Positions 48,301 through 64,000 of a DNA stretch of 64,000 nucleotides are shown here, one piece after another. Origin of the DNA: a virus (lineage: Duplodnaviria > Caudoviricetes); IMG/VR virus record IMGVR_UViG_3300014205_000170, positions 288,001-352,000 of that record, one strand, 5' to 3'. Under the pieces are notes generated by a model. It ran no database searches. It saw only the letters and a program-made list of their open reading frames with translations, and was not told the DNA's origin. Position 1 is the first letter of the stretch. The number at the start of each line of letters is the position of its first letter. The position numbers and the translations under genes are program-made.

Positions 48301-48307
48301 TTTTAAC

Positions 48308-48335
48308 AAGAAGGGCTTTTAATCGAGCCCTTCTT
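48308..48335 (+). terminator. Hairpin after the binding-protein gene
   Basis: aagaagggct/agcccttctt. Confidence 0.6.
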
Positions 48336-48348
48336 AATTTTAAACAAT

Positions 48349-49134
48349 ATGTCAAACAAACTTTTTAAACTTAGAGGAGTCGTTGATAAACGATGGGTAA
48401 TTGCTTTAGAAACTGGAGGAATAATCTTATTTTTATTAATATGGCAACTCTTATCTTTTAGATTTCCAGCAGCAGTATTACCATCTCCTGGAGAAGTTTT
48501 ATCTTCTTTTGGAGAATTAAATACACAAGATTTTCTTATTGAAAATACGATGTATTCAATTAAATTAAATTATTATGGTTATTTTGAGGCGATTCTAATT
48601 GCAGTACCATTAGGTTTTCTTATTGGATTATTTCCATTTTTTAAACATATTGCAAGTAAACATGTAGATGCAACAAGATTTATTCCATTAACTGCAATTA
48701 CCGGACTTTTTATTGCTTGGTTTGGCATTCAAGATGGAATGAAAATCCATTTCTTAGCATTTGGTATTATTGTTTATTTGTTACCAGTTGTAGTTCAGCG
48801 AATTTCAGAAGTTGAAGAAGTATATATTCAAACTATACACACTTTAGGTGGTTCTACATTACAAAAGATTTTTCTTGTTTTTGTTCCTGCTGTGTTATCA
48901 AAACTTTTTGATGATATTCGCGTATTAGTTGCTATTAGCTGGACTTATATTATCGTTGCAGAAATGATAAATAAAGAACACGGTATAGGAGCAATGATTT
49001 TTACAGCAGCAAGACAATCACGACTTGATAAAGTATTTGCTATTTTATTTGTGATTATTATAGTAGGTTTTTTACAAGATAAATTATTTAAACTTGTTGA
49101 TAACATGATTTTTAGACACAAATACCAAAAATAA
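48349..49134 (+). CDS. ABC transporter permease (SsuC/TauC-like)
   Basis: LPSPGEV, multiple transmembrane helices, WTYIIVAE. Confidence 0.9.
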   Translation: MSNKLFKLRGVVDKRWVIALETGGIILFLLIWQLLSFRFPAAVLPSPGEVLSSFGELNTQDFLIENTMYSIKLNYYGYFEAILIAVPLGFLIGLFPFFKHIASKHVDATRFIPLTAITGLFIAWFGIQDGMKIHFLAFGIIVYLLPVVVQRISEVEEVYIQTIHTLGGSTLQKIFLVFVPAVLSKLFDDIRVLVAISWTYIIVAEMINKEHGIGAMIFTAARQSRLDKVFAILFVIIIVGFLQDKLFKLVDNMIFRHKYQK

Positions 49135-49937
49135 TGGAAACAGTTAAATTTATAAATACAGAATTACCTGACCTTATTGAGTTAAAAGGCATTAAACAAA
49201 CTTACGATAACAACAAGAAAATAGTTCTTGATAATTTAGATTTACTTATAGAAGACAAACCAAATGCAGCACAATCAGTAGCTATATTAGGAGAGTCCGG
49301 ATGTGGTAAATCAACACTTTTAAGATATATTTGTGGTTTACAAATACCAACAGAAGGAGATGTTTTAATTCGTGGTAAAAAAATCGAACGCAAAGATAGA
49401 ACCGGAATGGTATTCCAACAATACTCGTCTTTGCCTTGGTTAACGGTTTTAGATAATGTTGCACTCGGATTAAAAATTCAAGGAATTGCAAGAAGCGAAA
49501 GAGAAGACCGAGCCATGGAAATGATACGTACTGTAGGTTTAGAAGGTCATGAAAATAAGTATGCAATGTATCCTTCTTTATCTGGAGGTCAATTACAAAG
49601 AGTAGCCATTGGAAGAAGTTTATTGACCAATCCTGACATGATTGTAATGGATGAGCCATTTGGAGCTTTAGACATTAACACTAGGTCTAAAATGCAGGAT
49701 ATGATGCTAAAAATATTGGAAAAATATCAACCAACAGTTGTGTTTGTAACACATGATATTGCGGAAGCTGTATATGTAGCTGATGATGTTTTTATTATGA
49801 AAGCAAATCCTGGACAAATTGTAAAACATATAAAAGTAAGCGAAATGATTTTGGGTCCAAAAACTCGTTTAACAAAAAGAAGCAAAGAATTCATTGATAC
49901 TGTTTGTATGATTGAAGATTTTATGACAAGTATGTAA
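49134..49937 (+). CDS. ABC transporter ATP-binding protein (SsuB/TauB-like)
   Basis: GESGCGKST, LSGGQLQR, MDEPFGALD, VTHD. Confidence 0.95.
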   Translation: METVKFINTELPDLIELKGIKQTYDNNKKIVLDNLDLLIEDKPNAAQSVAILGESGCGKSTLLRYICGLQIPTEGDVLIRGKKIERKDRTGMVFQQYSSLPWLTVLDNVALGLKIQGIARSEREDRAMEMIRTVGLEGHENKYAMYPSLSGGQLQRVAIGRSLLTNPDMIVMDEPFGALDINTRSKMQDMMLKILEKYQPTVVFVTHDIAEAVYVADDVFIMKANPGQIVKHIKVSEMILGPKTRLTKRSKEFIDTVCMIEDFMTSM

Positions 49938-49938
49938 T

Positions 49939-50706
49939 ATGCAAAAAATCTTTTTTATCATATTGTTTTTTATATCCTTATCAGGATATTCAAACAAAGA
50001 TTCAATTAATGTTGATACAACTAAATGTAAAATCGAAAGTTTTTATGAAGTAAATTTATCAAGTAGAAATATTTGGAGAGGAATCGATTTTGGAAATTAC
50101 AGTCCTTGTGTGTTTGGATTAGTTGGAATTACATATAAAAAACTTGAAATAGGTGCTTATGGAATTACATCTCTAACTGGAACTAACATTGGATATGGCA
50201 ATACTTTTAATGTTTATTCAGCATTAAAATTTAAATACATTTCTTTCTATATTGAAGATTATTATTTTAACGGTGATATTTCTAATATTCAAACAGATTA
50301 TCTAGATTGGAATAATACACATTTTCTTGAAAATAGAATAAAAATTGAGCATAAAGGATTTCATCTTATAGGTGGTTATACACTTGCCGGTGGTAAATTT
50401 TACAACATAACTTCACCTTTTAATAATACACAAGCAGTATATTTAGAAGTTGGATACAAACTTAAACATTGGTCTTTATCTATTGGTGGAATTACTGGAC
50501 CTAGCGCTTTAAATTTTCACGACAAAGAGGGGATAACAAACATTCTTTTAAAACATAAAAGTGAGATACAAAAATTAGGAAACCTACCAGTTGAAATTGG
50601 AATGTGTTATAATCCTAATTACAATAATATTGCACCAAAAGGTATTCCTCGTTATGGATACGGAAATAATGCATTTAATTTTTTAATAACAATCATATTA
50701 ATTTAA
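49939..50706 (+). CDS. Putative outer-membrane beta-barrel protein
   Basis: Signal peptide, SRNIWRG, alternating beta pattern. Confidence 0.6.
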   Translation: MQKIFFIILFFISLSGYSNKDSINVDTTKCKIESFYEVNLSSRNIWRGIDFGNYSPCVFGLVGITYKKLEIGAYGITSLTGTNIGYGNTFNVYSALKFKYISFYIEDYYFNGDISNIQTDYLDWNNTHFLENRIKIEHKGFHLIGGYTLAGGKFYNITSPFNNTQAVYLEVGYKLKHWSLSIGGITGPSALNFHDKEGITNILLKHKSEIQKLGNLPVEIGMCYNPNYNNIAPKGIPRYGYGNNAFNFLITIILI

Positions 50707-50708
50707 AA

Positions 50709-51464
50709 ATGGAAAAACGCATAAAAGAGTTAAGAAGTCAACTAGAAGCAGTTGGTCTTACAAGAAAAACTAATTTCTTTTCACTTAATAAAGAACAATT
50801 AAGTGCAGAAACATTATCTTGGACAATTAAAGAATATTCGGCATTATCAAATTCTGCCATCCATCTTTTAATGGATTCTGCAGTAAGAGTTCATGATTGG
50901 GAAAAATTAAAAAATGAAGTTTTAGAAAACATTAATGAAGAAATGGGACTTGAAACAAAAAAAGTTCCTCATCTTGAAATGATGCGAATTGGATATATGA
51001 AAGAATTAGGTATTATTACAGATGAGGTGATACCATCTGATGTTACTAAATCTTTTTTAAATCACATTACAAAAGTTTTCAAACACAATGATAACGCTTT
51101 TCAGGCCGGCGCGTTATTAGCTTTAGAAGGAAGTGCAGTAGAAGAATTTCATATTATGGATGAAATTATTCAAGAATATGCGAAGAAAAGTAAATTAGAT
51201 TTTCAAAAAAATTGGTTAACCAACCTTTATATAGATGGTCATAAGACTTTCGAAATTGGTCATGAGCAACATTTGTTAGATGCTATGTTGCCATATATTA
51301 CAGAAGAAAATTTTTCTAAATTTGAATTAGGATATTCAATAGTAGTAAAATTATTTTCAACTTGGTGGCAACAATTATCTTTAGAAACAGAAGTGTTTCA
51401 ACTAAACAGGAAAATCGCTACAATAAACACTGAAGAACCAGATTTACATAAAGTCTTCGCATAA
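50709..51464 (+). CDS. Heme-oxygenase-like/TenA-PqqC-fold protein
   Basis: NINEEMG...PHLE, ALEG, HKTFEIGHE. Confidence 0.55.
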   Translation: MEKRIKELRSQLEAVGLTRKTNFFSLNKEQLSAETLSWTIKEYSALSNSAIHLLMDSAVRVHDWEKLKNEVLENINEEMGLETKKVPHLEMMRIGYMKELGIITDEVIPSDVTKSFLNHITKVFKHNDNAFQAGALLALEGSAVEEFHIMDEIIQEYAKKSKLDFQKNWLTNLYIDGHKTFEIGHEQHLLDAMLPYITEENFSKFELGYSIVVKLFSTWWQQLSLETEVFQLNRKIATINTEEPDLHKVFA

Positions 51465-51466
51465 AC

Positions 51467-52495
51467 ATGGGTAGTTGGTCAGTCAATTGTGGTATAAGTA
51501 ATATTGCAATAACATCAGGAAATAAATGTGTATTGTTACCTTTAAAAGAAAATAAAGGTGATGAGTCAAAAAAATGGCAAGCAGCCACATTACCAATTTT
51601 TGGTCAATATAATGACTATGGAGGGATTGATGCAATTGAGATTGATGATAATACAAAATTAATTGCAGAGCACTTCGGTGTTAGTATAGAAGAGTTTGCA
51701 ACATTCCTGGTAGACGGTAAATTTACTTATAATAGAGATGAAGCGCAAGAAGTTGCTGCAAAGATTAAAAATCTAGATGAATGTAAAAAATGGAGATTCA
51801 TGTGGATTGATAGACAAGTTTATGATTTTATGATTATAAACTATAGTAAACACAATAAAGGTTATTTAGATTATGGTACACCAGAAATGTTGAAACTCTT
51901 AGGGTTTAAATTAATTGCAGAATCAGATGATTTTAAAAATTATGACCCAAAAAGATTTAATCAACTATGGAAAAAAGGTAATGTTGAAATGTTTAGTGAT
52001 AGCACAACTTTATTATCAAAGAACGGTAAATTTGTTTATCATTATGGAAAAGGAGATGAGTCGAGTATTGAAACGTATTTTGAAGTTCCAAAAGAGCTAG
52101 AATATCTTAAAAACAAAACGAAAAATGAAACATGGAGACTTTTAAGTACTAAAGATGCAAAGGCAATGCTTAGTCCTATTCTAGGAAGTAGATATGATTT
52201 TAATGGGTTATCTGAAATGGTAGAAGAGATAAGACTTAAAAATATAATTGCACCTACTATTTTATATAAAAAATATTATGCAAATCTAGAAATGTTTGGA
52301 GATAAAATTGTTCATCTTATAAACATGATACATAATTTATATCCAATGTCCGGACAATTTGTTCCACATGTATTATATTTAACTCCACAATGTGGTGAAT
52401 ATAAAAAACATCAATCAATACTGGAAAAGTTTGCAGAAATCAACAAAACCTACATTGAACCAGATGATGACACAGATGATTATGATATAGAGTAG
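51467..52495 (+). CDS. Hypothetical phage protein
   Basis: MGSWSVNCGIS...PIFGQYNDYG. Confidence 0.6.
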   Translation: MGSWSVNCGISNIAITSGNKCVLLPLKENKGDESKKWQAATLPIFGQYNDYGGIDAIEIDDNTKLIAEHFGVSIEEFATFLVDGKFTYNRDEAQEVAAKIKNLDECKKWRFMWIDRQVYDFMIINYSKHNKGYLDYGTPEMLKLLGFKLIAESDDFKNYDPKRFNQLWKKGNVEMFSDSTTLLSKNGKFVYHYGKGDESSIETYFEVPKELEYLKNKTKNETWRLLSTKDAKAMLSPILGSRYDFNGLSEMVEEIRLKNIIAPTILYKKYYANLEMFGDKIVHLINMIHNLYPMSGQFVPHVLYLTPQCGEYKKHQSILEKFAEINKTYIEPDDDTDDYDIE

Positions 52496-52608
52496 CAATA
52501 GCCAGTACTTTAAGAGTTACAAAAAGCCAGATATGTGTTGATAATTTTTTTTGTTACTTCGAAAAAAAATATTATATTTGAAAACTTAAAATCACAAAAA
52601 CCATAAAA

Positions 52609-52911
52609 ATGAAAGCAAAAAAAACAAACAATCGCAAGCAGATTAGAAAATCTGTTTCAAAAACAACAAAAAGGAACACGACCAACACTGACAAAACAGT
52701 ACAAAGTGTTGAAAATGGAATTAAAATTGTACAGTATGCAATCAGAAAGAAAACATCTCTTTCAAAAGCATCAGATGATAATGGTCGCGGAAGAAATTAC
52801 GTGTCTGATATCAAAGCTCGTATCGAAAATAACTATAAAAATCGCAGCATCAATCGCGAACTTTATACTACTTTCAAAACCACTTTGAAAAATTACGAAA
52901 GTCAACGATAA
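52609..52911 (+). CDS. Basic small protein, possibly nucleic-acid binding
   Basis: K/R-rich; preceded by TATATTTG (Bacteroidota -7 box) and followed by a terminator at 52934-52964. Confidence 0.55.
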   Translation: MKAKKTNNRKQIRKSVSKTTKRNTTNTDKTVQSVENGIKIVQYAIRKKTSLSKASDDNGRGRNYVSDIKARIENNYKNRSINRELYTTFKTTLKNYESQR

Positions 52912-52969
52912 TATTTCAAAAACAACGACAGAGAAAGGGAATAAATTTATTTATTCCCTTTTTTATTAA

Positions 52970-53248
52970 ATGAAAACATTCATTATAAAATATAAATGTC
53001 AATTTTGTTCTCGGTTAAACTTTGAAAAACCGATGCCTCATAAATGTGTTGGTGGTTATCGAAGAAGAAAACTCATTTGGCACCAATATTTAGTACCTAA
53101 CCAAATTGTTCTGGTTGAAAAATTTTTCCCCGATAATCCAAGAAAAAACGATTATTATTTCATTTTAAAAAACACATTACCATTTTTTTCTTTAAATTCG
53201 TATCTAATAAAACGAAAAGGAGAAAAAAATAATGAAGAAACTATTTAA
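52970..53248 (+). CDS. Hypothetical protein (QIVLVEK motif)
   Basis: CxxC...HxC. Confidence 0.45.
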   Translation: MKTFIIKYKCQFCSRLNFEKPMPHKCVGGYRRRKLIWHQYLVPNQIVLVEKFFPDNPRKNDYYFILKNTLPFFSLNSYLIKRKGEKNNEETI

Positions 53249-54056
53249 AAATGACTGGGTTTCATTTTACATTGGTATTGACAGAAGTAGGTTTACTTTA
53301 AGTCCAGCTTCTTATTTTGATGAAAGATTCTACATCATTTTAACCCCAACTCTATTAATTCCTATTATAGGTGTGTTTTTTACCGGTTTAAGCTTCTGGT
53401 CTCTTGTATGGTTATTATTCATTCCATATGGTTATGGATGTCTATATATTCATCTTCCTATATATTCAGGTCTTGACGAATGTGACCCTCCGGAATATGG
53501 TTTTTATTTTTTTGGAGAAAATCTTTTAAGAATAAATTCATTTGTTGTTTGTAGGGGGAAAACTAGTAATAAATACTTTAACATGCCATGGTATTGGGTT
53601 TGGGAACGAACTAGTAAATTAAAAAAAGATGGTACTTGGCAACATGATTTGAGAAAAAAGAAATTTGATTTTTATACTAAAGAATGGGAAAACGAAGTTT
53701 GGAAAGAAGAATATCCGTTTACTTATATTTTAAAGAATGGTAATATACAACAAAGACTAGCGATAATTACTGTGCATGAAATGGAATGGCGTTGGAAAGC
53801 TTTAAAAATTTTACCATTTCCACGGATGATTCGTAAAAGTATCGATATTCAATTTGAATATGGGGGTCCAATTGAAAGAGAAATATTTTTTGAAAAACAA
53901 GGAAATAAATCCAAGTATTTAGAAAAATACACCGGAGAAGTTGGTGAAAGAACTGGAGGTTGGAAAGGCGGAACCACTGGGTGTAGTTACAGTATGCGAC
54001 AAAATGAAACTCCTCTTGAAACTTTAAGAAGAATGGAAAAAGAAAGAAAATTTTAG
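53232..54056 (+). CDS. Hypothetical membrane protein (REIFFEK motif)
   Basis: Transmembrane segment; GEVGERTGGWKGG. Confidence 0.6.
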   Translation: MKKLFKNDWVSFYIGIDRSRFTLSPASYFDERFYIILTPTLLIPIIGVFFTGLSFWSLVWLLFIPYGYGCLYIHLPIYSGLDECDPPEYGFYFFGENLLRINSFVVCRGKTSNKYFNMPWYWVWERTSKLKKDGTWQHDLRKKKFDFYTKEWENEVWKEEYPFTYILKNGNIQQRLAIITVHEMEWRWKALKILPFPRMIRKSIDIQFEYGGPIEREIFFEKQGNKSKYLEKYTGEVGERTGGWKGGTTGCSYSMRQNETPLETLRRMEKERKF

Positions 54057-54128
54057 TAAAAGCTTTAAATTTTAAAACTTTTTCTTAACTTTAACGTATA
54101 ATAAGAAAAATAGACTACTTATAATTAT

Positions 54129-54215
54129 ATGATTACTAAAAATACATATCACTATTTGACACTTAATGTGGTCGTGGCGCACTTTTTACAAGTCGTCCAG
54201 CCGGACTATATTTAA
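54129..54215 (+). CDS. Val-rich attenuator leader peptide (28 aa)
   Basis: MITKNTYHYLTLNVVVAHFLQVVQPDYI*; Val codons GTG GTC GTG...GTC GTC. Confidence 0.8.
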   Translation: MITKNTYHYLTLNVVVAHFLQVVQPDYI

Positions 54216-54240
54216 ACTTTAGTGTATTATAATACATTCA

Positions 54241-54275
54241 GACTCCGGCTAAACAAGTCGGAGTTTTTTATTTTT
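54241..54275 (+). terminator. Attenuator terminator upstream of ValRS
   Basis: actccggct/agtcggagt plus T-run; the 5' arm can alternatively pair with agccgga in the leader. Confidence 0.85.
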
Positions 54276-54289
54276 AAAAAATTAATTTT

Positions 54290-55642
54290 ATGAAAACAGA
54301 TAATAAATACAAAATAGATATGCCACCACCAACGATAAGTGGTAAATTACATATGGGTCACGCTTTTTCTTATACACAAATGGATTTTATAGCGCGATAT
54401 CAACGAATGAAAAATAAAGAGTTGATTTACCCATTTGGTTATGATAACAATGGAATACCAACAGAAAAGTTTGCTTACAAAAAAAGAATAACAGATACAC
54501 AAAAGATAATCGAACTTTCAAATGAAACTTCTAAAATGTATATGGAATTTTTCAATAATATAAATATGGGGTTTTCTAATCATAGTTATAACACATTTGA
54601 TAAGCTTTCCACTGAAATTGCCTTACTGTCTTTTTATGACCTCAAAGAGAAAGGGTTGCTTTATAAAGGAAAAGAAAATTATTCTTTTTGTACTTCTTGT
54701 AATAAATCGATTCCTAATTCTGAAATTGAAAATAATAAACACATTAGAGATAATGGTGATATTATTGAAAAAGAAGGGGAAGGTTATTTTATTAAAACCA
54801 AAGACTTTAAACAAGAACTTATAGAACAAATTGAAAAAATAGAATGGAAACCTGAAAAATTCAAGAATAGAATTTTAAGTTGGATTAATGATATGGATAG
54901 AGATTGGTCAATTGCTAGACGCAGAGATTATGGAATTTCAATTCCAGGAGAATCTGAACTAAAGTTTGATACATGGTTTACCTCTTCTTTAACTCCTCAA
55001 ATAGCATGGGCATCTCATACCGGTATTGCTTCTTTAGAATGTCCTATTTTTGATTTAAGATTTCAAGCACATGATATTATTAGTACTTGGGCGCTATATA
55101 CCATCATTAAATCTTATCACCACAATAAACAAATACCATGGAAACAGATTATTATCACTGGACATGCGCTTGATAAAAATGGTGATAAACTTGCAAAGAG
55201 TAAAGGAAATTGTACCACCACTGATTATTACATAAAAGAATTTGGTGGAGAAGGAATAAGATATTGGGCAGCTCAAACTCAAATTGGAACCGATACATTA
55301 TTAGATGATGAAACAATGAAAAATTGTAAAAAGCTTATGATTAAACTTAAAAATGCATATAAATTCATAGAGTTTCAAAAATCCAAAGAATGGCTTGGTT
55401 TCAATAAAGAGAAAGAAATTGAGTGGGGAACAATTAAAATAAAAATAGAAGAATATTTTGAACAAGGAGATTGGGCAAAAGCATTTGAAGAATTGTTTAA
55501 TTTCTTCTGGAAAAGATTTTGCGATATTTTTATTGAAGATTCAAAAAAAGAGAGTTGTTCACAAAGCTTAGAGCTAATTTTAAATGAAATGATGATTTAT
55601 TGGCAAATTTTCTTCCCAAAAATTCAAGAAAACATAAAATAA
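54290..55642 (+). CDS. valS: Minimal valyl-tRNA synthetase
   Basis: PPPTISGKLHMGHA (HIGH), DFIARYQRM, FDTWFTSS, QAHDII, KLAKSKGN (KMSKS); Val leader upstream. Confidence 0.85.
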   Translation: MKTDNKYKIDMPPPTISGKLHMGHAFSYTQMDFIARYQRMKNKELIYPFGYDNNGIPTEKFAYKKRITDTQKIIELSNETSKMYMEFFNNINMGFSNHSYNTFDKLSTEIALLSFYDLKEKGLLYKGKENYSFCTSCNKSIPNSEIENNKHIRDNGDIIEKEGEGYFIKTKDFKQELIEQIEKIEWKPEKFKNRILSWINDMDRDWSIARRRDYGISIPGESELKFDTWFTSSLTPQIAWASHTGIASLECPIFDLRFQAHDIISTWALYTIIKSYHHNKQIPWKQIIITGHALDKNGDKLAKSKGNCTTTDYYIKEFGGEGIRYWAAQTQIGTDTLLDDETMKNCKKLMIKLKNAYKFIEFQKSKEWLGFNKEKEIEWGTIKIKIEEYFEQGDWAKAFEELFNFFWKRFCDIFIEDSKKESCSQSLELILNEMMIYWQIFFPKIQENIK

Positions 55643-55826
55643 AACTGAAATTATTCTATTGATTTATAGAGAATTAAGAAAAAAAACATAAAAAAACTTT
55701 GTTTTATTGAAACTTTACCTTAAATTTGACGTTAGAATATAAAATTGTACTATTTATTATAAGTTGAACCCCATATAAATGGGAGATACAGTGCGGGGTC
55801 TCTCACAGCTTATTTAGAATTAGAAA

Positions 55827-55928
55827 ATGAAAAATGTAAATACATACACGGTTAATACACTAAGACAATTAGTGTTAGAACAACTTATAGAAAGTTGTCC
55901 AGCTGGGATATGTTCGTTTACAAGTTAA
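55827..55928 (+). CDS. Attenuator leader peptide (33 aa) of the tRNA array
   Basis: MKNVNTYTVNTLRQLVLEQLIESCPAGICSFTS*; contains the antiterminator agctggg. Confidence 0.7.
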   Translation: MKNVNTYTVNTLRQLVLEQLIESCPAGICSFTS

Positions 55929-55951
55929 TTATATATAACTAAACGTTCTTC

Positions 55952-55984
55952 AAGAACCCCGGCTTTAAAAGGTCGGGGTTTTTT
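55952..55984 (+). terminator. Attenuator terminator upstream of the tRNA array
   Basis: aaccccggct/ggtcggggtt plus T-run, ending about 14 nt before the first tRNA. Confidence 0.85.
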
Positions 55985-55998
55985 GTTTTATTGATATT

Positions 55999-56070
55999 GC
56001 CTTATTAGCTCAGTTGTAAGAGCGCTCGTTTCGTAAACGAGAGGTCATCAGGTCGAACTGATATGAGGCT
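55999..56070 (+). tRNA. tRNA-Thr(CGT), atypical T-loop
   Basis: Acceptor gccttat/atgaggc; ctcgt-ttCGTaa-acgag. Confidence 0.75.
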
Positions 56071-56081
56071 CAAAAAAATAT

Positions 56082-56168
56082 GCCTTCGTGGTGAAATTGG
56101 ACAGAGACACAAGGGTCTTAAAAACCCTCGGATTTAATTCCATGCGGATTCGAGTTCCGCCGAAGGTA
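56082..56168 (+). tRNA. tRNA-Leu(TAA)
   Basis: agggt-ctTAAaa-accct; long variable arm. Confidence 0.9.
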
Positions 56169-56181
56169 CAAAAAAAGAGAA

Positions 56182-56349
56182 ATGGGAAAAGTAGAAAAGA
56201 AAAAATTAAGATTACAAGAAAGGATTCAAACTTTAGAAAATGAATTAAGAACTTCTTTGACAAAAAAAACATCTGATGTAAAAGAAATCAATGTTGCTGT
56301 TCATCAAAGAAAAATTTATGATTTAAAATTAGAATTACAAAAAATGTAA
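56182..56349 (+). CDS. Small coiled-coil protein within the tRNA array (55 aa)
   Basis: MGKVEKKKLRLQERIQTLENELR...LELQKM*. Confidence 0.55.
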   Translation: MGKVEKKKLRLQERIQTLENELRTSLTKKTSDVKEINVAVHQRKIYDLKLELQKM

Positions 56350-56355
56350 CAACAC

Positions 56356-56429
56356 GCCTTCGTAGCACAACGGATTAGTGTCTCTGTTTTCTAAACAGGT
56401 GGGTGGAGGTTCGAATCCTCTCGAAGGTA
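56356..56429 (+). tRNA. tRNA-Arg(TCT)
   Basis: tctgt-ttTCTaa-acagg; ggttcgaatcc. Confidence 0.88.
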
Positions 56430-56449
56430 CAAATGGTTCTTTGACATAT

Positions 56450-56534
56450 GCCAGAATGGTGAAATCGTGTAGACACACCATCCTCAAAAGATGGCGCTAT
56501 AAAAAGCGTGAGAGTTCGAATCTCTCTTCTGGTA
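56450..56534 (+). tRNA. tRNA-Leu(CAA)
   Basis: ccatc-ctCAAaa-gatgg; variable arm. Confidence 0.9.
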
Positions 56535-56539
56535 CAATA

Positions 56540-56614
56540 GCTCCCTTAGCTCAGCTGGTTAGCAGCATCAGACTCATAATCTGAGGGTCGTTGGTTCGAG
56601 CCCAACAGGGAGCA
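56540..56614 (+). tRNA. tRNA with CAT anticodon (Met or Ile2)
   Basis: tcaga-ctCATaa-tctga. Confidence 0.9.
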
Positions 56615-56619
56615 CAAAT

Positions 56620-56704
56620 GTTACGGTATGCAAACTGGCTGAAGCACCTAGATTTTCAATCTAGTTTCGAAAGAAAATTGCAGGTTCGAACCCCGTCCGT
56701 AATA
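56620..56704 (+). tRNA. tRNA with TTC (Glu) anticodon and long variable arm
   Basis: ctaga-ttTTCaa-tctag; extra arm tttcgaaagaaa. Confidence 0.75.
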
Positions 56705-56709
56705 CAAAT

Positions 56710-56784
56710 GGCCACATAGCTCAATCGCGTTGGAGCAGGATGCTTATATCATCAAGGTTGGGAGTTCAAATCTCTCTGTGGCTA
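56710..56784 (+). tRNA. tRNA-Ile(TAT)
   Basis: gatg-ctTATat-catc; acceptor ggccaca/tgtggct. Confidence 0.8.
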
Positions 56785-56797
56785 CAAAAAAATAAAT

Positions 56798-56879
56798 GCT
56801 CCGTTGGCGGAATGCAGACGCACTTGGCTTAGGACCAAGCTCTCGAAAGGGAATGAAGATTCGAATTCTTCACGGAGTA
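56798..56879 (+). tRNA. tRNA-Leu(TAG)
   Basis: cttgg-ctTAGga-ccaag; variable arm. Confidence 0.9.
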
Positions 56880-56959
56880 CAAAATTGTTCTTTGAATATT
56901 TGAAATACATGTTATTTTAGAAATATAGTGTGTATAACATTTTTTGTCTATTTATAATC

Positions 56960-57421
56960 ATGAGAAATGATATAATAAAACAAAAAAAAATAATTTTGAA
57001 ATTAATAAATGAAAATAGACCAAAATCATTTATTTGTAAGTTTTTAGATTGTAGACCTCTTACGTTAGATAATTATTTAAAAAAGTGGAACATAAATTAT
57101 GTTGGGAATAAAGGAGGAAAGGGATATAAAATTTCACCGATAAAAAAAACAGCTATTCAATATATGAATAGCACTGGACATATAAGTTCTTATAAATTAG
57201 GGAAAAAACTTATAGAAGATGGATTAAAAGAAAAAAAATGCGAATGTTGTAATTTAACAAAATGGATAAATAAAGACATACCTTTAGAATTACATCACAA
57301 AGATGGAAATAGGTTTAATAATGAATTACAAAATTTACAATTATTATGTCCTAATTGTCATGCTTTAACTGAAAATTATGGTAGCAAAAATAAAAAAAAT
57401 AAAAATGGCCCATTCGTCTAG
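56960..57421 (+). mobile_element. HNH homing endonuclease inserted in the tRNA array
   Basis: CECC...LELHHKDGN...NLQLLCPNCH; 3' end overlaps tRNA-Glu. Confidence 0.88.
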
Positions 57422-57479
57422 GGGTTTAGGACGCTGCCCTTTCACGGCAGAAACACGGATTCGAATTCCGTATGGGCTA
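57407..57479 (+). tRNA. tRNA-Glu(TTC)
   Basis: ctgcc-ctTTCac-ggcag. Confidence 0.92.
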
Positions 57480-57488
57480 CAATAAAAT

Positions 57489-57561
57489 GCTCTTATCGAC
57501 AAGTGGTTTAAGTCACCGCTTTCTCAAAGCGGAGTCACGGGTTCAAGTCCCGTTAAGAGTA
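57489..57561 (+). tRNA. tRNA-Glu(CTC)
   Basis: ccgct-ttCTCaa-agcgg. Confidence 0.88.
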
Positions 57562-57566
57562 CAAAT

Positions 57567-57645
57567 GCCGATGTGATGTAATGGTAGCCATACTGGTTTA
57601 AGAAGCCAGTGCGAAAGCGTTTCGGTTCGAGTCCGAACATCGGTA
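57567..57645 (+). tRNA. tRNA-Leu(AAG)
   Basis: ctggt-ttAAGaa-gccag; short extra arm gcgaaagc. Confidence 0.85.
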
Positions 57646-57661
57646 CAAAAAAAGGAAAAAA

Positions 57662-57991
57662 ATGGAAACAACAGAAGTAAAAATTAATGCAATCGAAGTA
57701 AAAAAAGAACTGTATAAAAGTAAGGTAAATGCAAAATTAAGTCATTTTGACAAACCAAACTTGTATTACACAGTAGAATTGTCTACGGGAACATATCAGT
57801 TTCCTATTGCAACTACTGTAAAAAAAACATTAACTCTAATGGATGGAGATGAAGTTATTTCAATGTTTGACATTGATAAAGCTGCTCCGGACTTAGCAGG
57901 CGCTAACTTTGGTTTAGAGGTAAAAGCCTCTGATTTGAACCGTTGGATTGAGAGAGCAATAAAGAACGACGATTTTATAAAAATCAGTTAG
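57662..57991 (+). CDS. Hypothetical protein
   Basis: ORF. Confidence 0.55.
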   Translation: METTEVKINAIEVKKELYKSKVNAKLSHFDKPNLYYTVELSTGTYQFPIATTVKKTLTLMDGDEVISMFDIDKAAPDLAGANFGLEVKASDLNRWIERAIKNDDFIKIS

Positions 57992-58028
57992 TAGATTTTT
58001 TTGTGTTTATATTTATATATAAACGCAA

Positions 58029-58442
58029 ATGAAAAAATTTCTGTTAATATTTTTTATAGTTTTAAGTTTAGCGTGCAAATCTCAAACTAAAAATTTGTGG
58101 CAAAAAATTCCAGATGACGCAAAACATGTTTATTCTGGTGTGATAATTACAATGGTAACTGGTGATTTAGTTTATAAATATTCAAAAGGAAGAACAGGAT
58201 TAGCGGTAGGAGTTGGTTTTTTATCAGGAGTAACCGCAGGAGTGGCAAAAGAATTGATATGGGACAAGTGGATGGGAAAAGGCGTTCCGAGTAAGTGGGA
58301 TGCATTTAGTACTGCGTGGGGAGCAGGAATAGGCACTATATCACTTAGGGTAATGATAGATGTTAGAGAACGAAAGCAGTATGATGAATACTCAATAGAA
58401 AAATTAGGTAAAAAGAAAAAAAGAAGACATAGAAATGGTTAA
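58029..58442 (+). CDS. Putative lipoprotein/membrane protein (YfiM-like)
   Basis: Lipobox-like SLAC, DDAKH, GVAKELIWD, WDA. Confidence 0.6.
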   Translation: MKKFLLIFFIVLSLACKSQTKNLWQKIPDDAKHVYSGVIITMVTGDLVYKYSKGRTGLAVGVGFLSGVTAGVAKELIWDKWMGKGVPSKWDAFSTAWGAGIGTISLRVMIDVRERKQYDEYSIEKLGKKKKRRHRNG

Positions 58443-58515
58443 CATAACAATTAATATTCAACAACAACAGCAACAACAAACTCTAAATAAGGGTTCCGGA
58501 ATTGCTTTGTCTTGA
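58435..58515 (+). CDS. Poly-Gln attenuator leader peptide (26 aa)
   Basis: MVNITINIQQQQQQQTLNKGSGIALS*; 6 CAA + 1 CAG. Confidence 0.88.
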   Translation: MVNITINIQQQQQQQTLNKGSGIALS

Positions 58516-58537
58516 CGTTATTAATTTAACAAATTAC

Positions 58538-58571
58538 AAAAAGCCTGGAACTTAAAGTTTCAGGCTTTTTT
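58538..58571 (+). terminator. Attenuator terminator upstream of the tRNA-Gln cluster and GlnRS
   Basis: aagcctggaact/agtttcaggctt plus T-run; the 5' arm can pair with ggttccgg in the leader. Confidence 0.88.
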
Positions 58572-58577
58572 ATTTAT

Positions 58578-58648
58578 TGTCCTATAGTGTAATGGCAGCA
58601 CAAGAGATTTTGACTCTCTTAGTCTAGGTTCGAGTCCTAGTGGGACAA
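58578..58648 (+). tRNA. tRNA-Gln(TTG)
   Basis: agaga-ttTTGac-tctct. Confidence 0.92.
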
Positions 58649-58653
58649 CATAT

Positions 58654-58725
58654 TCCTCGTTGGTCTAATGGCAATGACGTTGGTTTTTGACACCAAAAGT
58701 GGTAGTTCGATTCTATCACGAGGAA
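58654..58725 (+). tRNA. tRNA-Gln(TTG)
   Basis: ttggt-ttTTGac-accaa. Confidence 0.88.
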
Positions 58726-58730
58726 CAAAT

Positions 58731-58803
58731 TGCTCCATAGTATAATGGCCTATTATCGCTGCCTTTGAAGCAGAAGACCTTGGTTCGATTCCAAGTGGAG
58801 CAT
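58731..58803 (+). tRNA. tRNA-Gln(TTG)
   Basis: ctgc-ctTTGaa-gcag. Confidence 0.88.
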
Positions 58804-58810
58804 CTAAAAT

Positions 58811-58883
58811 TGCCTTATAGTATAATGGTTATTATTCTCGTTTCTGAGACGATGAGATGTTGGTTCGAATCCAGCTTAGGTAA
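58811..58883 (+). tRNA. tRNA-Gln(CTG)
   Basis: tcgt-ttCTGag-acga. Confidence 0.82.
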
Positions 58884-58906
58884 CAAACAAAAAAAATCGT
58901 AACTTT

Positions 58907-59392
58907 ATGGTTATGAAAACGAGAGAAGAACAAATAAAAAATGCTACAGTTCAAATAGGCAATACTGTTAAGGTTAATAAGCGATTATTGGATAAAAAAC
59001 TATCAATAGAACTTTTTAAAGAAACTGCGGAAGAATTATTTAAAGAACATTCAGAATATTATAAGCCAAAACATTTTAATACTATTGTTTATAAATTGTT
59101 TTCTATGAAAAACGTTTTTGTTGCAACAGCTCCATGTGAAGATTTTTTTGATAAAAAAGGAAAATGGATTACAGAAATACCAACTCGTTCACACAGAAGC
59201 TTAGAAGCATTTGATATTATTGATTCTATTCAAAATTATTTAAATGAAGGAGCATTGGTATATTTATATACATTTTATAGTATGAAACAGGATATTGTTA
59301 CAGGTTATAGAAATAATGATTTTACAGACACAATAGTAGAACCAAATGTTGATACATATTGGTGGAGATTAATAGTAAAAAAAGAAGAATAA
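58907..59392 (+). CDS. Hypothetical protein in the Gln operon
   Basis: ORF between the tRNA-Gln genes and GlnRS. Confidence 0.55.
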   Translation: MVMKTREEQIKNATVQIGNTVKVNKRLLDKKLSIELFKETAEELFKEHSEYYKPKHFNTIVYKLFSMKNVFVATAPCEDFFDKKGKWITEIPTRSHRSLEAFDIIDSIQNYLNEGALVYLYTFYSMKQDIVTGYRNNDFTDTIVEPNVDTYWWRLIVKKEE

Positions 59393-59394
59393 TT

Positions 59395-61011
59395 ATGAAT
59401 TTTATTGAAGAAAAAATAATTGAAAAAGGAAATGTTGAGAAATTTAAACTTAGATTTCCACCAGAAAATAATGGCCACCTTCATGTTGGTCATGCGAAAT
59501 CCATATGTCTTAACTTTGGGTTGTCTGAAAAATACAATAGACCTTGTAATTTAAGATTTGATGATACAAATCCTTCTAATGAATCAGATGAATATACAAA
59601 GTCTATTATAAAAGATATTGAATGGTTAAATTATAAGCCGGCAGAAATTTTACATACTTCTGACTATTTCTCTTTTCTTTATGAATCAGCCATAAAATTA
59701 ATCAAAAAAGGATTGGCATATGTTGACGATTCAACATCAGAAGAAATTGCAAAATTAAAAGGTACTCCAACTATGTCTGGAAAACCGTCTCCTTATTATT
59801 CGCGTACCGTTGAAGAAAATTTAGATTTGTTCGAAAGAATGAAAAACGGAGAGTTTACAGAAGGTTCAAAAATTCTTAGAGCTAAAATTGATATGGCTTC
59901 TCCTAATATGATTTTAAGAGACCCAGTGATGTATAGAATTATAAATACAACACATCATCATACAGGAGATGTTTGGAAAATTTATCCAATGTATGATTTC
60001 GCACATCCTTTATCAGATTATACTGAAGGAATCACAGATTCTTTATGTACTTTAGAATTTGAAGTTCATAGACCACTTTATAATTGGTTTTTGGAAAATT
60101 TGAATTTACCAAATCCATTGCCGGAAGAAACAGAATTTGCTCGTTTAAACATTGAATATACAGTACTTTCAAAACGTAAATTAAAAAGATTGGTTGAAGA
60201 GAAATTTGTTTCAGGATGGGACGACCCAAGAATGCCAACCATTTCAGGATTAAGAAGAAGAGGATATACTCCAACAGCTATTAAAGATTTTTGTGAACGA
60301 GTTGGCGTTACAAAAAAAGAATCTTTAATAAGTTATTTGCTTTTAGAAGAATGTTTAAGAAATGACTTAAATAAATCTACCAATAGATTTATGGGAATAA
60401 TGAATCCTGTTAAAATAACAATTACAAACTGGAATAATGGCGTTGAAATGGTTGAAGTTGAGAACAATCCAGAGGATGAAACTGCCGGAAAAAGATTAAT
60501 TCCTTTTTCAAAAGAATTGTGGATTGATAGAGACGATTTTAGAGAAGAAGCTGATAATAAATTTTTCAGATTAAAATTAGGGAGTGAAGTTAGATTGAAA
60601 GGTGCTTATGTCATAAAAGCAGAAGAAGTGATTAAGAATGGAGATGTTATTACGGAAATAAAATGTACATATGACCCTTTAACGAAATCTGGATTAGGCA
60701 CTAACAGAAAAGTTAAAGGAACAATTCATTGGGTTTCTTGCGAACATGGAGTTAAGGCAGAAGTTAGAGAATATTCAAAATTATTCACTCATATCACACC
60801 GGATAAGTCTGAAGATGATTTTGTAAACTATATTGATGCCAACTCTTTGGTTATTAATAACAATGCAATATTTGAACCGGCTGTTTTAAATTGTATTCCT
60901 GGAAAACCAGTTCAAATGATAAGAGTAGGTTATTACGTAAGAGATACGAATGATGAATCTCTTATTTTTAATAAGACCGTGTCTCTTAAGGAGGATAAGT
61001 ATAAATCATAG
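59395..61011 (+). CDS. glnS: Glutaminyl-tRNA synthetase
   Basis: RFPPENNGHLHVGHAKS, LRFDDTNP, IYPMYDFAH, SLCTLEF, LSKRKL, WDDPRMPTISGLRRRG; start placed at MNFIEE. Confidence 0.95.
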   Translation: MNFIEEKIIEKGNVEKFKLRFPPENNGHLHVGHAKSICLNFGLSEKYNRPCNLRFDDTNPSNESDEYTKSIIKDIEWLNYKPAEILHTSDYFSFLYESAIKLIKKGLAYVDDSTSEEIAKLKGTPTMSGKPSPYYSRTVEENLDLFERMKNGEFTEGSKILRAKIDMASPNMILRDPVMYRIINTTHHHTGDVWKIYPMYDFAHPLSDYTEGITDSLCTLEFEVHRPLYNWFLENLNLPNPLPEETEFARLNIEYTVLSKRKLKRLVEEKFVSGWDDPRMPTISGLRRRGYTPTAIKDFCERVGVTKKESLISYLLLEECLRNDLNKSTNRFMGIMNPVKITITNWNNGVEMVEVENNPEDETAGKRLIPFSKELWIDRDDFREEADNKFFRLKLGSEVRLKGAYVIKAEEVIKNGDVITEIKCTYDPLTKSGLGTNRKVKGTIHWVSCEHGVKAEVREYSKLFTHITPDKSEDDFVNYIDANSLVINNNAIFEPAVLNCIPGKPVQMIRVGYYVRDTNDESLIFNKTVSLKEDKYKS

Positions 61012-61146
61012 GAGAAAAGTAGTTAATTCTATAAAAATCATATTTTTTTGAACATTTTCAATGTTAAGTTTTTTATATATTGCTTTTTTTCATATATTTG
61101 TTTATATTTATCTAACATACAGATAACAATTTAATAACACAGAAAT

Positions 61147-61542
61147 ATGAAAAAGCTAATATTATTATTAATCTTCTTTGTAACATTTACATCATTTGCT
61201 ACAAATATTACTGAGAAAAACATTGATTATTATTCTAATGGTAATGTGAAAACTAAACTTTTCAAATATGAAGAATATTCTACATTAGTTAAGTATTATG
61301 AAACTGGCAAAATTCAAGAAATTGGATATTTTGATTTATCTGGTAATAAAACCGGTCATTGGCTTAGTTTTTATGATAATGGAAGAATGATGTCAGAAGC
61401 TAATTTTAAAAATGGCAGAAAGCATGGAGAGTGGAAATCTTATGACACTAATGGAAAAATGATTGTTTTTATTAAATATAAACGTGGTCAAAAAATTCTG
61501 GGTTGTCTTGTAAATGATAAAAATGAATTGGTAGTTCGTTAA
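61147..61542 (+). CDS. Secreted MORN-variant repeat protein
   Basis: Signal peptide; YYSNGN, YYETGK, FYDNGR, KHGEWKSY. Confidence 0.75.
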   Translation: MKKLILLLIFFVTFTSFATNITEKNIDYYSNGNVKTKLFKYEEYSTLVKYYETGKIQEIGYFDLSGNKTGHWLSFYDNGRMMSEANFKNGRKHGEWKSYDTNGKMIVFIKYKRGQKILGCLVNDKNELVVR

Positions 61543-61558
61543 TGCTAAAACATATATT

Positions 61559-61593
61559 TAAAAGGGTTAAAATTAAGGTTTTAACCCTTTTTT
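61559..61593 (+). terminator. Intrinsic terminator
   Basis: aaagggttaaaa/ttttaacccttt plus T-run. Confidence 0.75.
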
Positions 61594-61669
61594 ATTGTAA
61601 TAAACTTTTAGCTGGGTTTTTCGTTTAAATTATATTGAAATATCATTATTTTTTAGTATTTTTGACATC

Positions 61670-61978
61670 GTGGAGCAGATAAATAATTTCCAACCTAAAG
61701 TAGTGTGGGATAATAATTTTTTTTTAAACAAACTTACAAGGGAAGTTTTTATAGAAAAGATTTTTTTGCACATAAAATATGCTGTTTTAAATGAATGGAA
61801 ACGAGAAAATGGAATACTTTCTTTTTCTATAAAAACAAAATGTGATTTTTGTAAAAAAGAATCAACTGCAATTTTTGATTATGGTTCTAAAAAGAGTAAT
61901 AAAACATTAGGAGTTTGTATTTATTGTGATGAATTAATTATATGTTGGAGTAAATATTTTAATGGAAGAATCAACTAA
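61670..61978 (+). CDS. Zinc-finger hypothetical protein (REVFIEK motif)
   Basis: CDFC...CIYC. Confidence 0.45.
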   Translation: MEQINNFQPKVVWDNNFFLNKLTREVFIEKIFLHIKYAVLNEWKRENGILSFSIKTKCDFCKKESTAIFDYGSKKSNKTLGVCIYCDELIICWSKYFNGRIN

Positions 61979-62765
61979 ATATTCACGTACATTACACTTT
62001 CCAATTTCGAAGGGAACAACTTCGGATGATAGAATATTGTCCGCTGGGTACTTAGATATTGTTTCTAAGATGAATCTAATTGTTACTGAAAAATTAGATG
62101 GTCAAAATGATTGTTTAAAAAAAGATGGAGTTTTTGCGAGGTCACACACAGCTCCTAGTGCGCATCCTTGGGATAAACCTTTGTGGGATAGATGGAATTT
62201 AATTAAGAACGATTTAAAAGACCTTGAAATATTTGGAGAAAACATGTATGGAATACATTCAGTGGCTTATAGTAAACTTGAATCATTTTATTATGTTTTT
62301 GCAGTAAGAGAAAAAGGAGTTTGGCTTTCTTGGGAAGAAGTTAAATTTTATGCAGCAATGTTGGATTTTCCAGTTGTACCTGAGTTAAAATATGATAATA
62401 CACTTTCTTCATTTGTTAATCCTAAAAAATCAGAGAATGATTGTTTGAAAGAATGGTTACAATCGTTTTTAAAAATGGATTGGGAAGATTACACAAACAC
62501 TTCCGGAGCATTAGGTGGTTATAATCCAAAAAACAATAACAAGCCAGCATGTGAAGGTTTCGTAATTAGAAATTCAACTGCATTTAAAACAAATGATGGA
62601 ATTATAAAAACGCAACCAAATGAATTTCGCAATGTGTTTAAATTAGTTAGAGGAGGCCATGTTCAAACAGATGAACATTGGACTAAAAATTGGCAACCAG
62701 CTACATTAATTAACGGTGAAAAATATGGTTGGTATGGATATGAAAACAATTATAAAAATAAATAA
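61962..62765 (+). CDS. ATP-dependent RNA ligase family protein
   Basis: KYSRTLH, TEKLDGQN (motif I), FGENM, EGFVIR, FKLVR. Confidence 0.85.
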   Translation: MEESTKYSRTLHFPISKGTTSDDRILSAGYLDIVSKMNLIVTEKLDGQNDCLKKDGVFARSHTAPSAHPWDKPLWDRWNLIKNDLKDLEIFGENMYGIHSVAYSKLESFYYVFAVREKGVWLSWEEVKFYAAMLDFPVVPELKYDNTLSSFVNPKKSENDCLKEWLQSFLKMDWEDYTNTSGALGGYNPKNNNKPACEGFVIRNSTAFKTNDGIIKTQPNEFRNVFKLVRGGHVQTDEHWTKNWQPATLINGEKYGWYGYENNYKNK

Positions 62766-62767
62766 AA

Positions 62768-63273
62768 ATGAAAATAAGTACACTTTTTAAATATATTGCA
62801 CTTGTGTGTTGTATTACGAATTTGATTTCATCAATTATTTGGTCTTTTGTAGTACATGATTATAATAAAGCTTATGAAAGGTCAGAAATGGCAATGGTCT
62901 TTTTGCTATTTTATGGTGTTTTATATACTATAGATAAAAATAAATGTCAGAAACCATAATTAAAACAATTCATAAAGTAAGAGTTTCTGGTAGATGGGTT
63001 GAGTTTTGGTTTAAAGAAAATTTATCTAAAGACAAAAATTACAAAAGTGAATGGGGAGAGTTTATAGGAGAAGAGTGTTTCCATGCTTGTGTAAAAATTA
63101 GTAAGTTATTTCAGGTTTTGAACGAAAAAGAAAATGAACCCATAAGAGAAGAAATGGTAGCAGCAAAACTTAAGAACATTAAGACGGTTTGGGTACATAG
63201 TCACTTTAAAGGTAATTTAGAATTTGTAAGTTTTTTAGAGGGGGTACGAACAGTTTTAATAGAAAAAAAATAA
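62768..63273 (+). CDS. Two small hypothetical proteins (62768-62959 membrane protein; 62944-63273 ending RTVLIEKK)
   Basis: Overlapping ORFs in operon. Confidence 0.5.
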
Positions 63274-64000
63274 TGAATGATAAAATAGATATATTGAAAT
63301 CTTTAGAATCATATTGGAATTGGGATGATGAAGCTTTAGGGTGCATCTCAGCCCTAAAAGGTTGTCAGCAAAGCAAGATTCATCATGCTGAAGGAGATGT
63401 TTATGTTCATACTCAAATGGTGACCAACGAAATGGAACAAGCTCTTAAAACAAAAAACTTTAATCAAACTCAAAAAGATACTTTATTATTATCAGCTCTT
63501 TTACATGATATTGCAAAACCAGACACAACTTATATTGATGAAGAGTCTAAGGATTGGGTAAGTCCGGGTCATGCAAAATTAGGAGAAAAACTTGCAAGAG
63601 AATTGTTGTTTAAAAAATTCCCCTTTTTACAGAGAGAAGAAATTTCTGCACTTGTTCGATATCACGGTTTACCTATTTGGGCAGAAGTAAAACCTAATCC
63701 GGATAAAGCTATTATAGAAGCTTCTTTAAGATGTAATTTAAATGAACTTTCATTATTGGCTGAATGTGATTTTAAAGGAAGAATATGTCAAGATTTAGAT
63801 GATATGCTTCTTCGTATTGAAATATTTAAAGAGAGAGCAGAAAAGCTTAATTGTTTAAATCAACCATATCCATTTGCAAATGACTGGTCTAGATTACATT
63901 GTTTTCGTAGAGATAGTTATCATGCTGCCGAAATATGGGAACCCAAAAAAGGTTGGTTAACAATAATGTGTGGTTTGCCTGGTTCTGGTAAAAACACATG
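63273..64000 (+). CDS. HD-domain plus P-loop kinase protein (PNK-like RNA end-healing; partial)
   Basis: Manual translation: HHAEGDVYVHT, LLHDIAK, GHA, ECDFKGR, then MCGLPGSGKNT at the window end. Confidence 0.8.
   Translation, partial: MNDKIDILKSLESYWNWDDEALGCISALKGCQQSKIHHAEGDVYVHTQMVTNEMEQALKTKNFNQTQKDTLLLSALLHDIAKPDTTYIDEESKDWVSPGHAKLGEKLARELLFKKFPFLQREEISALVRYHGLPIWAEVKPNPDKAIIEASLRCNLNELSLLAECDFKGRICQDLDDMLLRIEIFKERAEKLNCLNQPYPFANDWSRLHCFRRDSYHAAEIWEPKKGWLTIMCGLPGSGKNT

Follow-up and report, generated by a model that had tools for sequence, protein, structure and literature searches.

A 64,000-nucleotide (nt) stretch of phage DNA (IMG/VR virus record IMGVR_UViG_3300014205_000170, positions 288001-352000; hereafter the window) raises the question why genes for a compact valyl-tRNA synthetase (ValRS), for an array of tRNAs, and for tRNA-Gln together with glutaminyl-tRNA synthetase (GlnRS) are each preceded by a short leader open reading frame (ORF) and an intrinsic terminator. 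The record represents a complete genome of 518,809 bp, bounded by direct terminal repeats, in which 55 tRNA-like matches were counted. Among the sequencing runs listed as containing this DNA there was only a landfill metagenome, possibly its source, and none of RNA. From the analyses presented here it appears very likely that these arrangements, and others in the same genome and in related phages, are ribosome-mediated transcription attenuators, for which translation of the leaders and regulated read-through are predicted.

Leader and terminator modules in the window

In the preliminary description of this DNA three leader/terminator units were proposed, each located in front of translation genes and each with a leader segment complementary to the 5' arm of its terminator. 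All three units and all three complementary pairs were found. With positions counted from the first letter of the window, their components are the following.

54129..54215, +, leader ORF 1 of 28 amino acids (aa), from the ORF list; Val codons at 54168-54176 (control) and 54192-54197 (switch edge), all five ending in G or C
54199..54205, +, antiterminator strand 1, pairing with 54244-54250 (complementarity and folding)
54240..54269, +, predicted intrinsic terminator 1, fold z -6.3
54290..55642, +, cargo of module 1: compact ValRS of 450 aa, best matches to ValRS, below curated cut-offs
55827..55928, +, leader ORF 2 of 33 aa, from the ORF list
about 55848-55892, +, leader 2 control region: Thr ACG, Leu CTA/TTA/CTT, Arg AGA, Glu GAA, Ile ATA, two Gln CAA
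55901..55907, +, antiterminator strand 2, pairing with 55958-55964 (complementarity and folding)
55952..55984, +, predicted intrinsic terminator 2, fold z -4.7
55999..57646, +, cargo of module 2: array of 11 tRNA genes (ARAGORN and Rfam)
58435..58515, +, leader ORF 3 of 26 aa; seven Gln codons (6 CAA, 1 CAG) at 58459-58479
58492..58499, +, antiterminator strand 3, pairing with 58545-58552 (complementarity), with compensatory changes in the relative L037
58538..58571, +, predicted intrinsic terminator 3, fold z -6.4
58578..58884, +, cargo of module 3: four tRNA-Gln genes (3 TTG, 1 CTG)
59395..61011, +, cargo of module 3: GlnRS of 538 aa (TIGR00440, 655 bits, cut-off 426)

The leader stops precede the hairpins by 24, 23 and 22 nt in modules 1 to 3, respectively, and the terminators are the three top-ranked terminator-like hairpins within 50000-64000. 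Complementary segments begin at 54199/54244, 55901/55958 and 58492/58545; compared with shuffled sequences, leader-to-arm pairing reached p values of 0.06, 0.003 and 0.014. Since only 20, 14 and 6 nt separate the ends of the U-tracts from the first cargo gene, there is no room for a separate promoter past the terminator. Promoters in that position had been named as a possible refutation of attenuation; the one internal motif that was detected lies within the array of module 2, at 56948.

Leader 3 provides the strongest match between control codons and cargo (Gln at 7 of 14 codons, p 1e-7), and it holds the single run of four or more Gln in 160,000 residues of called ORFs. The array of module 2 consists, in order, of tRNAs for Thr-CGT, Leu-TAA, Arg-TCT, Leu-CAA, CAT (Met or Ile2), Glu-TTC with a long variable arm, Ile-TAT, Leu-TAG, Glu-TTC, Glu-CTC and Leu-AAG. 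Its first member, tRNA-Thr(CGT) at 55999-56070, was missed by ARAGORN and found by Rfam, and the matching rare ACG codon is present in leader 2. The product of 54290..55642 is nearest to ValRS and has a HIGH/KMSKS class Ia core; it scores below the cut-offs because about 170 residues of the editing insert and the C-terminal part are missing. Its Val specificity is predicted from the sequence.

Leaders 1 and 2 share a 10-mer (54195 and 55897, in different reading frames; three copies genome-wide), as had been reported, and modules 1 and 2 are each other's best local alignment. The duplication suggested before is thereby plausible, but not demonstrated.

Leader units across the genome and in related phages

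A blind terminator scan revealed three further units, at genome positions 419848, 422294 and 427383. Codons for Thr/Ser/His/Asn/Phe, for Lys, and for twelve further amino acids abound in the respective leaders; the cargos are, in matching order, Phe-Ser-Asn-His-Thr tRNAs, a group of five tRNA-Lys, and about 20 tRNAs in one block for those twelve amino acids. These units gate the other large tRNA blocks of the genome, and the six units jointly span all 20 amino acids. Two of about ten synthetases are gated directly, while no leader units were found before the genome's other synthetase genes (Met, Arg, Leu, Ile, Pro, Glu, Trp, Asn/Asp).

Relatives among huge phages were located through GlnRS and ValRS homologues. 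In this phage and its relatives, a leader is present at 41 of the 43 terminators just 5' of tRNA genes, compared with 16 of 142 other terminators. The real pairing of leaders and cargos ranked top of 720 permutations in this genome; for relatives the corresponding values were 1/5040 in two, and 1/120 and 0/200000 in two more, the real pairing being first in every genome tested. The relatives group their tRNAs differently, and the leaders shift accordingly (Pro/Asp, His/Lys/Phe/Trp, Ser/Arg, Glu/Tyr, Gly/Ala/Ile, Leu/Phe/Val/Arg). Val, Leu, Asp, Asn or His leaders were also detected in front of matching stand-alone synthetases, with Val runs preceding two different ValRS classes. This covariation, in which leader codons follow the downstream anticodons or synthetase here and in relatives, supports the codon-sensing attenuation put forward in the preliminary description.

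Conservation of the leaders was likewise borne out. In the closest relatives, L113, L128, L137 and L140, modules 2 and 3 are kept and the tRNA order is nearly unchanged; in L113, the frame of leader 2 is maintained and its ACG, AGA, GAA and ATA codons are retained. Relatives with a synthetase of the same ValRS family usually carry it within a tRNA operon, and to judge from the sequences module 1 looks like a lineage-specific split, possibly through duplication of module 2. The same leaders are carried by the public huge-phage records LR745206.1 and LR756502.1, which, to judge from their size, probably stem from the study of huge Bacteroidetes phages by Al-Shayeb et al. 2020 (PMC7162821). A search for a Gln leader followed by tRNA-Gln genes yielded nine true modules among 12 viral matches and no true module among 71 matches in 185,579 prokaryote genomes, this being one Gln-only pattern next to which other forms are possible. 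Leader-terminator units were not detected at the 24-tRNA array of crAss001 or at the array of Lak-A1, and no cultured phage with a leader-gated tRNA system was found.

The correspondence extends to isoacceptors. Informative leader codons are read by cargo anticodons in 89 of 125 cases (64 expected), and the Ile codon is ATA in six of eight cases with a TAT anticodon in the cargo, but in none of eight with GAT. Within the genome, too, codon choice agrees with the local anticodons, ATA and AGA occurring in leader 2 and ATT, AGG and CGC in the leader of the large block; Thr and Ser codons fit the cargo anticodons less well. Rare synonymous codons account for 86 of 209 control codons (29 expected). 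In leader 1, each of the five Val codons is a rare G/C-ending one, to which structure may contribute. Because the leader codons sample the isoacceptors of the cargo, what is sensed is most probably the amount of charged tRNA per codon. Additional tRNA would relieve a shortage of tRNA, not of amino acid, and tRNA supply is therefore the likelier target.

A number of leader codons do not fit the cargo directly downstream. Such residues in upstream leaders match the cargo of the next module in 61 of 171 cases, whereas 11 are expected, and the pattern recurs in several leader families (mixed to Gln, Phe/His/Asn to Lys, Pro/Asp to Gln, His/Lys/Phe/Trp to Ser/Arg). This suggests gates arranged in series and would account for the two Gln codons of leader 2, which are kept in L113; if Gln is counted, post hoc, leader 2 matches at 13 of 20 codons (p 0.015). 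Module 3 would accordingly be the second of two gates in series, behind module 2: a promoter motif was not found near its leader, which overlaps the stop of a 137-aa ORF, and in L113 leader 3 begins right after the last tRNA of array 2 without a promoter-like box. Gln shortage, sensed at leader 2, would let polymerase pass to gate 3.

Folding, promoters and alternative explanations

For the folding model, a ribosome was placed on successive leader codons of the nascent RNA, and the switch edge was computed without regard to codon identity. The terminator 5' arm was bound by the leader with P of 0.82-0.97 up to codons 21, 22 and 17 in modules 1 to 3, and with P of at most 0.2 near the stop. By computation, nascent RNA thus contains a mutually exclusive antiterminator that is free on stalling and covered at the stop. 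Ribosome footprints of 9-15 nt moved the switch edge by one codon. Across modules, cargo-matched codons show an excess of 0.34-0.52 over the 12 codons preceding this edge, and of at most 0.08 beyond it. Cognate leader/arm duplexes are more stable than non-cognate ones (-9.8 versus -6.9 kcal/mol); in the Lys module the antiterminator pairs higher in the stem and was missed by the arm-pairing metric. The 8-bp Gln helix differs between this phage and L037 by two two-sided and two one-sided changes, and crossed pairs of the two are much weaker (-5.5 and -0.9 versus about -10 kcal/mol). In full-length folds a hairpin at 55879-55899 and a 1:2 pairing appear, candidates for the protector or pause hairpin by which attenuators super-attenuate when translation is lacking, but nascent folds still form the antiterminator.

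From these structures the following sequence of events can be proposed. Host RNA polymerase would start at a sigma-A-type promoter and a ribosome would translate the leader. If control codons are read fast, the ribosome should cover the antiterminator strand, the terminator folds, and transcription would end before the cargo. A ribosome lingering at a control codon would leave this strand free to pair with the terminator 5' arm before the 3' arm emerges, and tRNAs or synthetase would be transcribed; the structures are computed, the kinetics presumed. Such negative feedback would let the phage top up its decoding supply. Candidate sources of shortage are tRNA-cleaving immunity, to which the PrrC- or PARIS-type nucleases of the preliminary description would belong, host tRNA decay, overload by the AT-rich codons of the phage, and starvation.

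Several results weigh against attenuation as described. Taken alone, the Val match of leader 1 (3 of 18 codons, p 0.07) and the mixed match of leader 2 (11 of 20, p 0.06) are borderline, so that of the three codon-cargo matches claimed at the outset only that of Gln is strong by itself; the case stands on the whole set of units, not on each unit singly. The cognate arm ranked first in just 13 of 45 modules, and pooled p values overstate independence because the relatives share ancestry. In nine of 22 cases the second leader has a promoter-like box of its own; serial control in the strict sense is weakened for these, and it is no general rule. The promoter-like motif at 56948 could bypass gate 2. 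Finally, folding of terminator against antiterminator, which had been recommended as a check, favoured the antiterminator in nascent RNA only. At equilibrium, with the full terminator present, termination has a P of about 1.0 at all stall positions of modules 1 to 3, and the terminator state is more stable by 6.2, 7.0 and 0.7 kcal/mol, respectively. Equilibrium folding was therefore discarded as uninformative for the switch, which must be kinetic, the antiterminator folding first.

Some of the alternatives depend on promoters and on sequences surrounding the modules. No multisubunit RNA polymerase genes are present in the phage genome, but three sigma factors are encoded. When the sigma-A promoter consensus of Bacteroidota (PMC9723704) was used in a motif scan, the -7 box was found over-represented 5' of genes (44 versus 13 in shuffled sequences; bipartite form 9 versus 0.4). 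Gene start regions are rich in A and poor in G, and from both features the host is probably a member of the Bacteroidota. The relevant elements are listed here.

54064..54093, +, candidate promoter of module 1 by motif scan, near-consensus Bacteroidota sigma-A with one mismatch per box
55698..55728, +, candidate promoter of module 2 by motif scan, perfect Bacteroidota sigma-A with 19-nt spacer, kept in L113
55760..55812, +, conserved structured 5' untranslated region (UTR) before leader 2; two stems, possible pseudoknot, two-sided changes at 3 of 15 pairs among 5 sequences
56948..57421, +, HNH endonuclease inserted in array 2, with a phage promoter-like motif ahead of it

The structure at 55760-55812 is kept, with compensatory changes, in four close relatives; an Rfam match was not found for it, and module 2 might receive a second regulatory signal through it. 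A phage-enriched motif was detected by the scan at 55750 and 56948.

Could the modules respond to translation in general? They might open whenever a leader is not translated to its end, upon initiation shut-off, ribosome shortage or antibiotics, with codon identity of minor importance. In the model of nascent RNA the antiterminator is already present when the ribosome stands at codon 2, and read-through is therefore expected from an untranslated leader; the codon signals of leaders 1 and 2 are, besides, weak. As the sole explanation this is nevertheless improbable, because the codons track the cargo across modules and genomes, down to the isoacceptor, and end at the switch point; it may rather be a second input of the same device. 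Marginally less probable still is that phage sigma promoters or an antitermination factor override the switches in infection, timing setting expression and attenuation only trimming it. The three sigma factors, the unexplained conserved UTR and the phage-enriched motif at its two sites would fit such control. However, the motif at 55750 lies 5' of the leader, so that transcripts still meet the gate, the one at 56948 came with the HNH insertion, which is absent from the matching arrays of L113, L128, L137 and L140, and the strong conservation of the leaders argues for a large effect.

T-boxes regulate synthetase genes through antitermination, and this precedent, together with the conserved structure ahead of leader 2, raises the question whether sensing is by RNA alone, through a T-box or a metabolite riboswitch, the ORFs being incidental. 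T-box or riboswitch matches were not obtained with Rfam at E up to 1 within 53500-61500, nor T-box matches in L001 at E up to 0.5; in-frame runs of several codons, and insertions and deletions that preserve the frame, fit translation, leaving very little weight for this proposal. Equally little remains for plain terminators or processing hairpins that happen to follow chance ORFs in AT-rich DNA, the cargo being transcribed from other promoters. Short ORFs are indeed frequent (212 in 16 kb), and 16 of 142 other terminators have one, but the gap of 6-20 nt between U-tract and cargo, the permutation ranks, the run of seven Gln and the compensatory changes largely exclude coincidence.

If the modules are attenuators, their purpose could be surveillance of the entire code, the cascaded gates reading charged isoacceptors and inducing replacement tRNAs when host immunity or decay destroys them. 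Such a phage-specific, inducible counter-defence would detect the effect of a nuclease rather than the nuclease. This extension is tentative and distinctly less probable than attenuation itself.

Relation to known systems and neighbouring features

Amino-acid operon attenuators (trp, his, leu, thr, pheA and the multivalent ilvGMEDA) have been reviewed (PMC1183508). The phage modules have in common with them a short leader with control codons, an antiterminator strand in its 3' part and an intrinsic terminator before the cargo, and, as in ilvGMEDA, mixed cargos have leaders with several amino acids. Module 3 gave a weak match to the Rfam family Thr_leader (31 bits, cut-off 55). Unlike in the classical systems, the cargo consists of tRNA genes and not of biosynthetic enzymes, the system is viral, gates appear to be arranged in series, and in the computed nascent folds the antiterminator strand is not sequestered by a protector hairpin. 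In classical leaders the codon that responds most strongly to starvation is preferred (PMC1183508), whereas phage leaders spread over synonymous isoacceptor codons.

Synthetase genes are also under attenuator control in Escherichia coli pheST. Further synthetase-gene attenuators were predicted by Lopatovskaya et al. 2010, as far as the citation in PMC4833913 conveys. Module 1, with a Val leader before ValRS, shares with these the logic of feedback on charging capacity; unlike there, the synthetase is compact and phage-borne, and GlnRS is co-gated with its tRNAs. In Flavobacterium psychrophilum, strong clues for leader attenuation before amino-acid biosynthesis operons and structured UTRs before synthetases were described (PMC9723704). 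Promoter type and inferred host phylum are shared with the phage; attenuation of tRNA genes is not mentioned in that paper.

Why phages carry tRNAs is, in the available text of PMC10264068, a long-open question between codon compensation and replacement of destroyed tRNAs, and phage tRNAs as counter-defence are hypothesized there. T5 tRNA-Lys counters PARIS, according to the available part of PMC11464382. Replacing depleted host tRNAs is a plausible purpose here too, but as far as these texts go they concern nuclease-resistant tRNAs, and in this phage transcription would be triggered by shortage. The words 'attenuat' and 'leader' did not occur in a keyword check of the available main text of PMC7162821, nor were attenuation and leaders mentioned in the available text of jumbo-phage overviews checked in the same way. 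No prior description of attenuated tRNA genes in phage was found in the literature searched, with subscription journals largely outside. While the mechanism is classical, there appears to be no earlier account of it acting on tRNA genes, in a virus, for the entire code and with gates in series.

If the proposed attenuation holds, phage tRNAs would be a conditional back-up, transcribed only when matching codons are read slowly, and each leader would state which tRNAs the phage expects to run short, which makes the question testable with small reporters. Attenuation would be extended from enzymes to tRNA genes, with a product directly relieving the sensed stall, and the leaders would offer natural codon-specific sensors of tRNA supply.

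Within and between the cargos of modules 2 and 3, the remaining ORFs are these.

57662..58442, +, two ORFs of no assigned function, 109 and 137 aa, between array 2 and leader 3, the 137-aa one sharing 8 nt with that leader; missing from L113
58907-59392, +, 161-aa ORF between the tRNA-Gln genes and GlnRS

The 450-aa ValRS belongs to a family of more than 100 homologues of similar length without editing insert. Other very short synthetases were noted, LeuRS-like (424 aa), IleRS-like (655), TrpRS-like (246), ProRS-like (373) and HisRS-like (214), at genome positions 113426-114700, 193906-195873, 207543-208283 and 192267-193388 and at 3107-3751 of L001. In array 2, Leu(AAG) at 57567-57646 and Ile(TAT) at 56710-56785 have anticodons uncommon in bacteria, which match the frequent CTT and ATA codons of the phage. 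Long variable arms, normally limited to Leu, Ser and Tyr, are present in tRNAs for Glu, Asn, His, Lys, Met, Trp and Thr, frequently with a normal copy next to them (window 56620-56705; L001 2794-2881, 3004-3090, 4330-4415, 9695-9779, 10162-10247 and 11718-11803), and in relatives for Gln too; they are possibly nuclease-evading variants. Stop-reading anticodons (TTA, CTA) occur in relatives (L017 2620; L036 14019; L018 6630; L025 5132; L029 4412). A contig binned as a Nanoarchaeota metagenome-assembled genome (L038, GCA_038044045.1) has a set of modules of this phage type and probably represents a phage assigned to the wrong bin.

Near the genome ends (0-46 kb and 516-518 kb), 42 copies of a 9-nt motif are located directly 5' of genes as a candidate early promoter, and a second AT-rich motif precedes 26 genes elsewhere. 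A permuted tmRNA is predicted at genome positions 17780-18274. In the window, translations at 46765-49937 read as an ABC-transporter-like operon of a binding protein with OmpA-like tail, a permease and an ATPase. Directly 5' of module 1, 53232-54056 matches Pfam Acb3, a CBASS inhibitor (128 bits). Just 3' of the GlnRS gene, 61962-62765 encodes an RNA ligase (PF09414), and RtcB is found near the tRNA arrays of L037; together these would fit tRNA repair.

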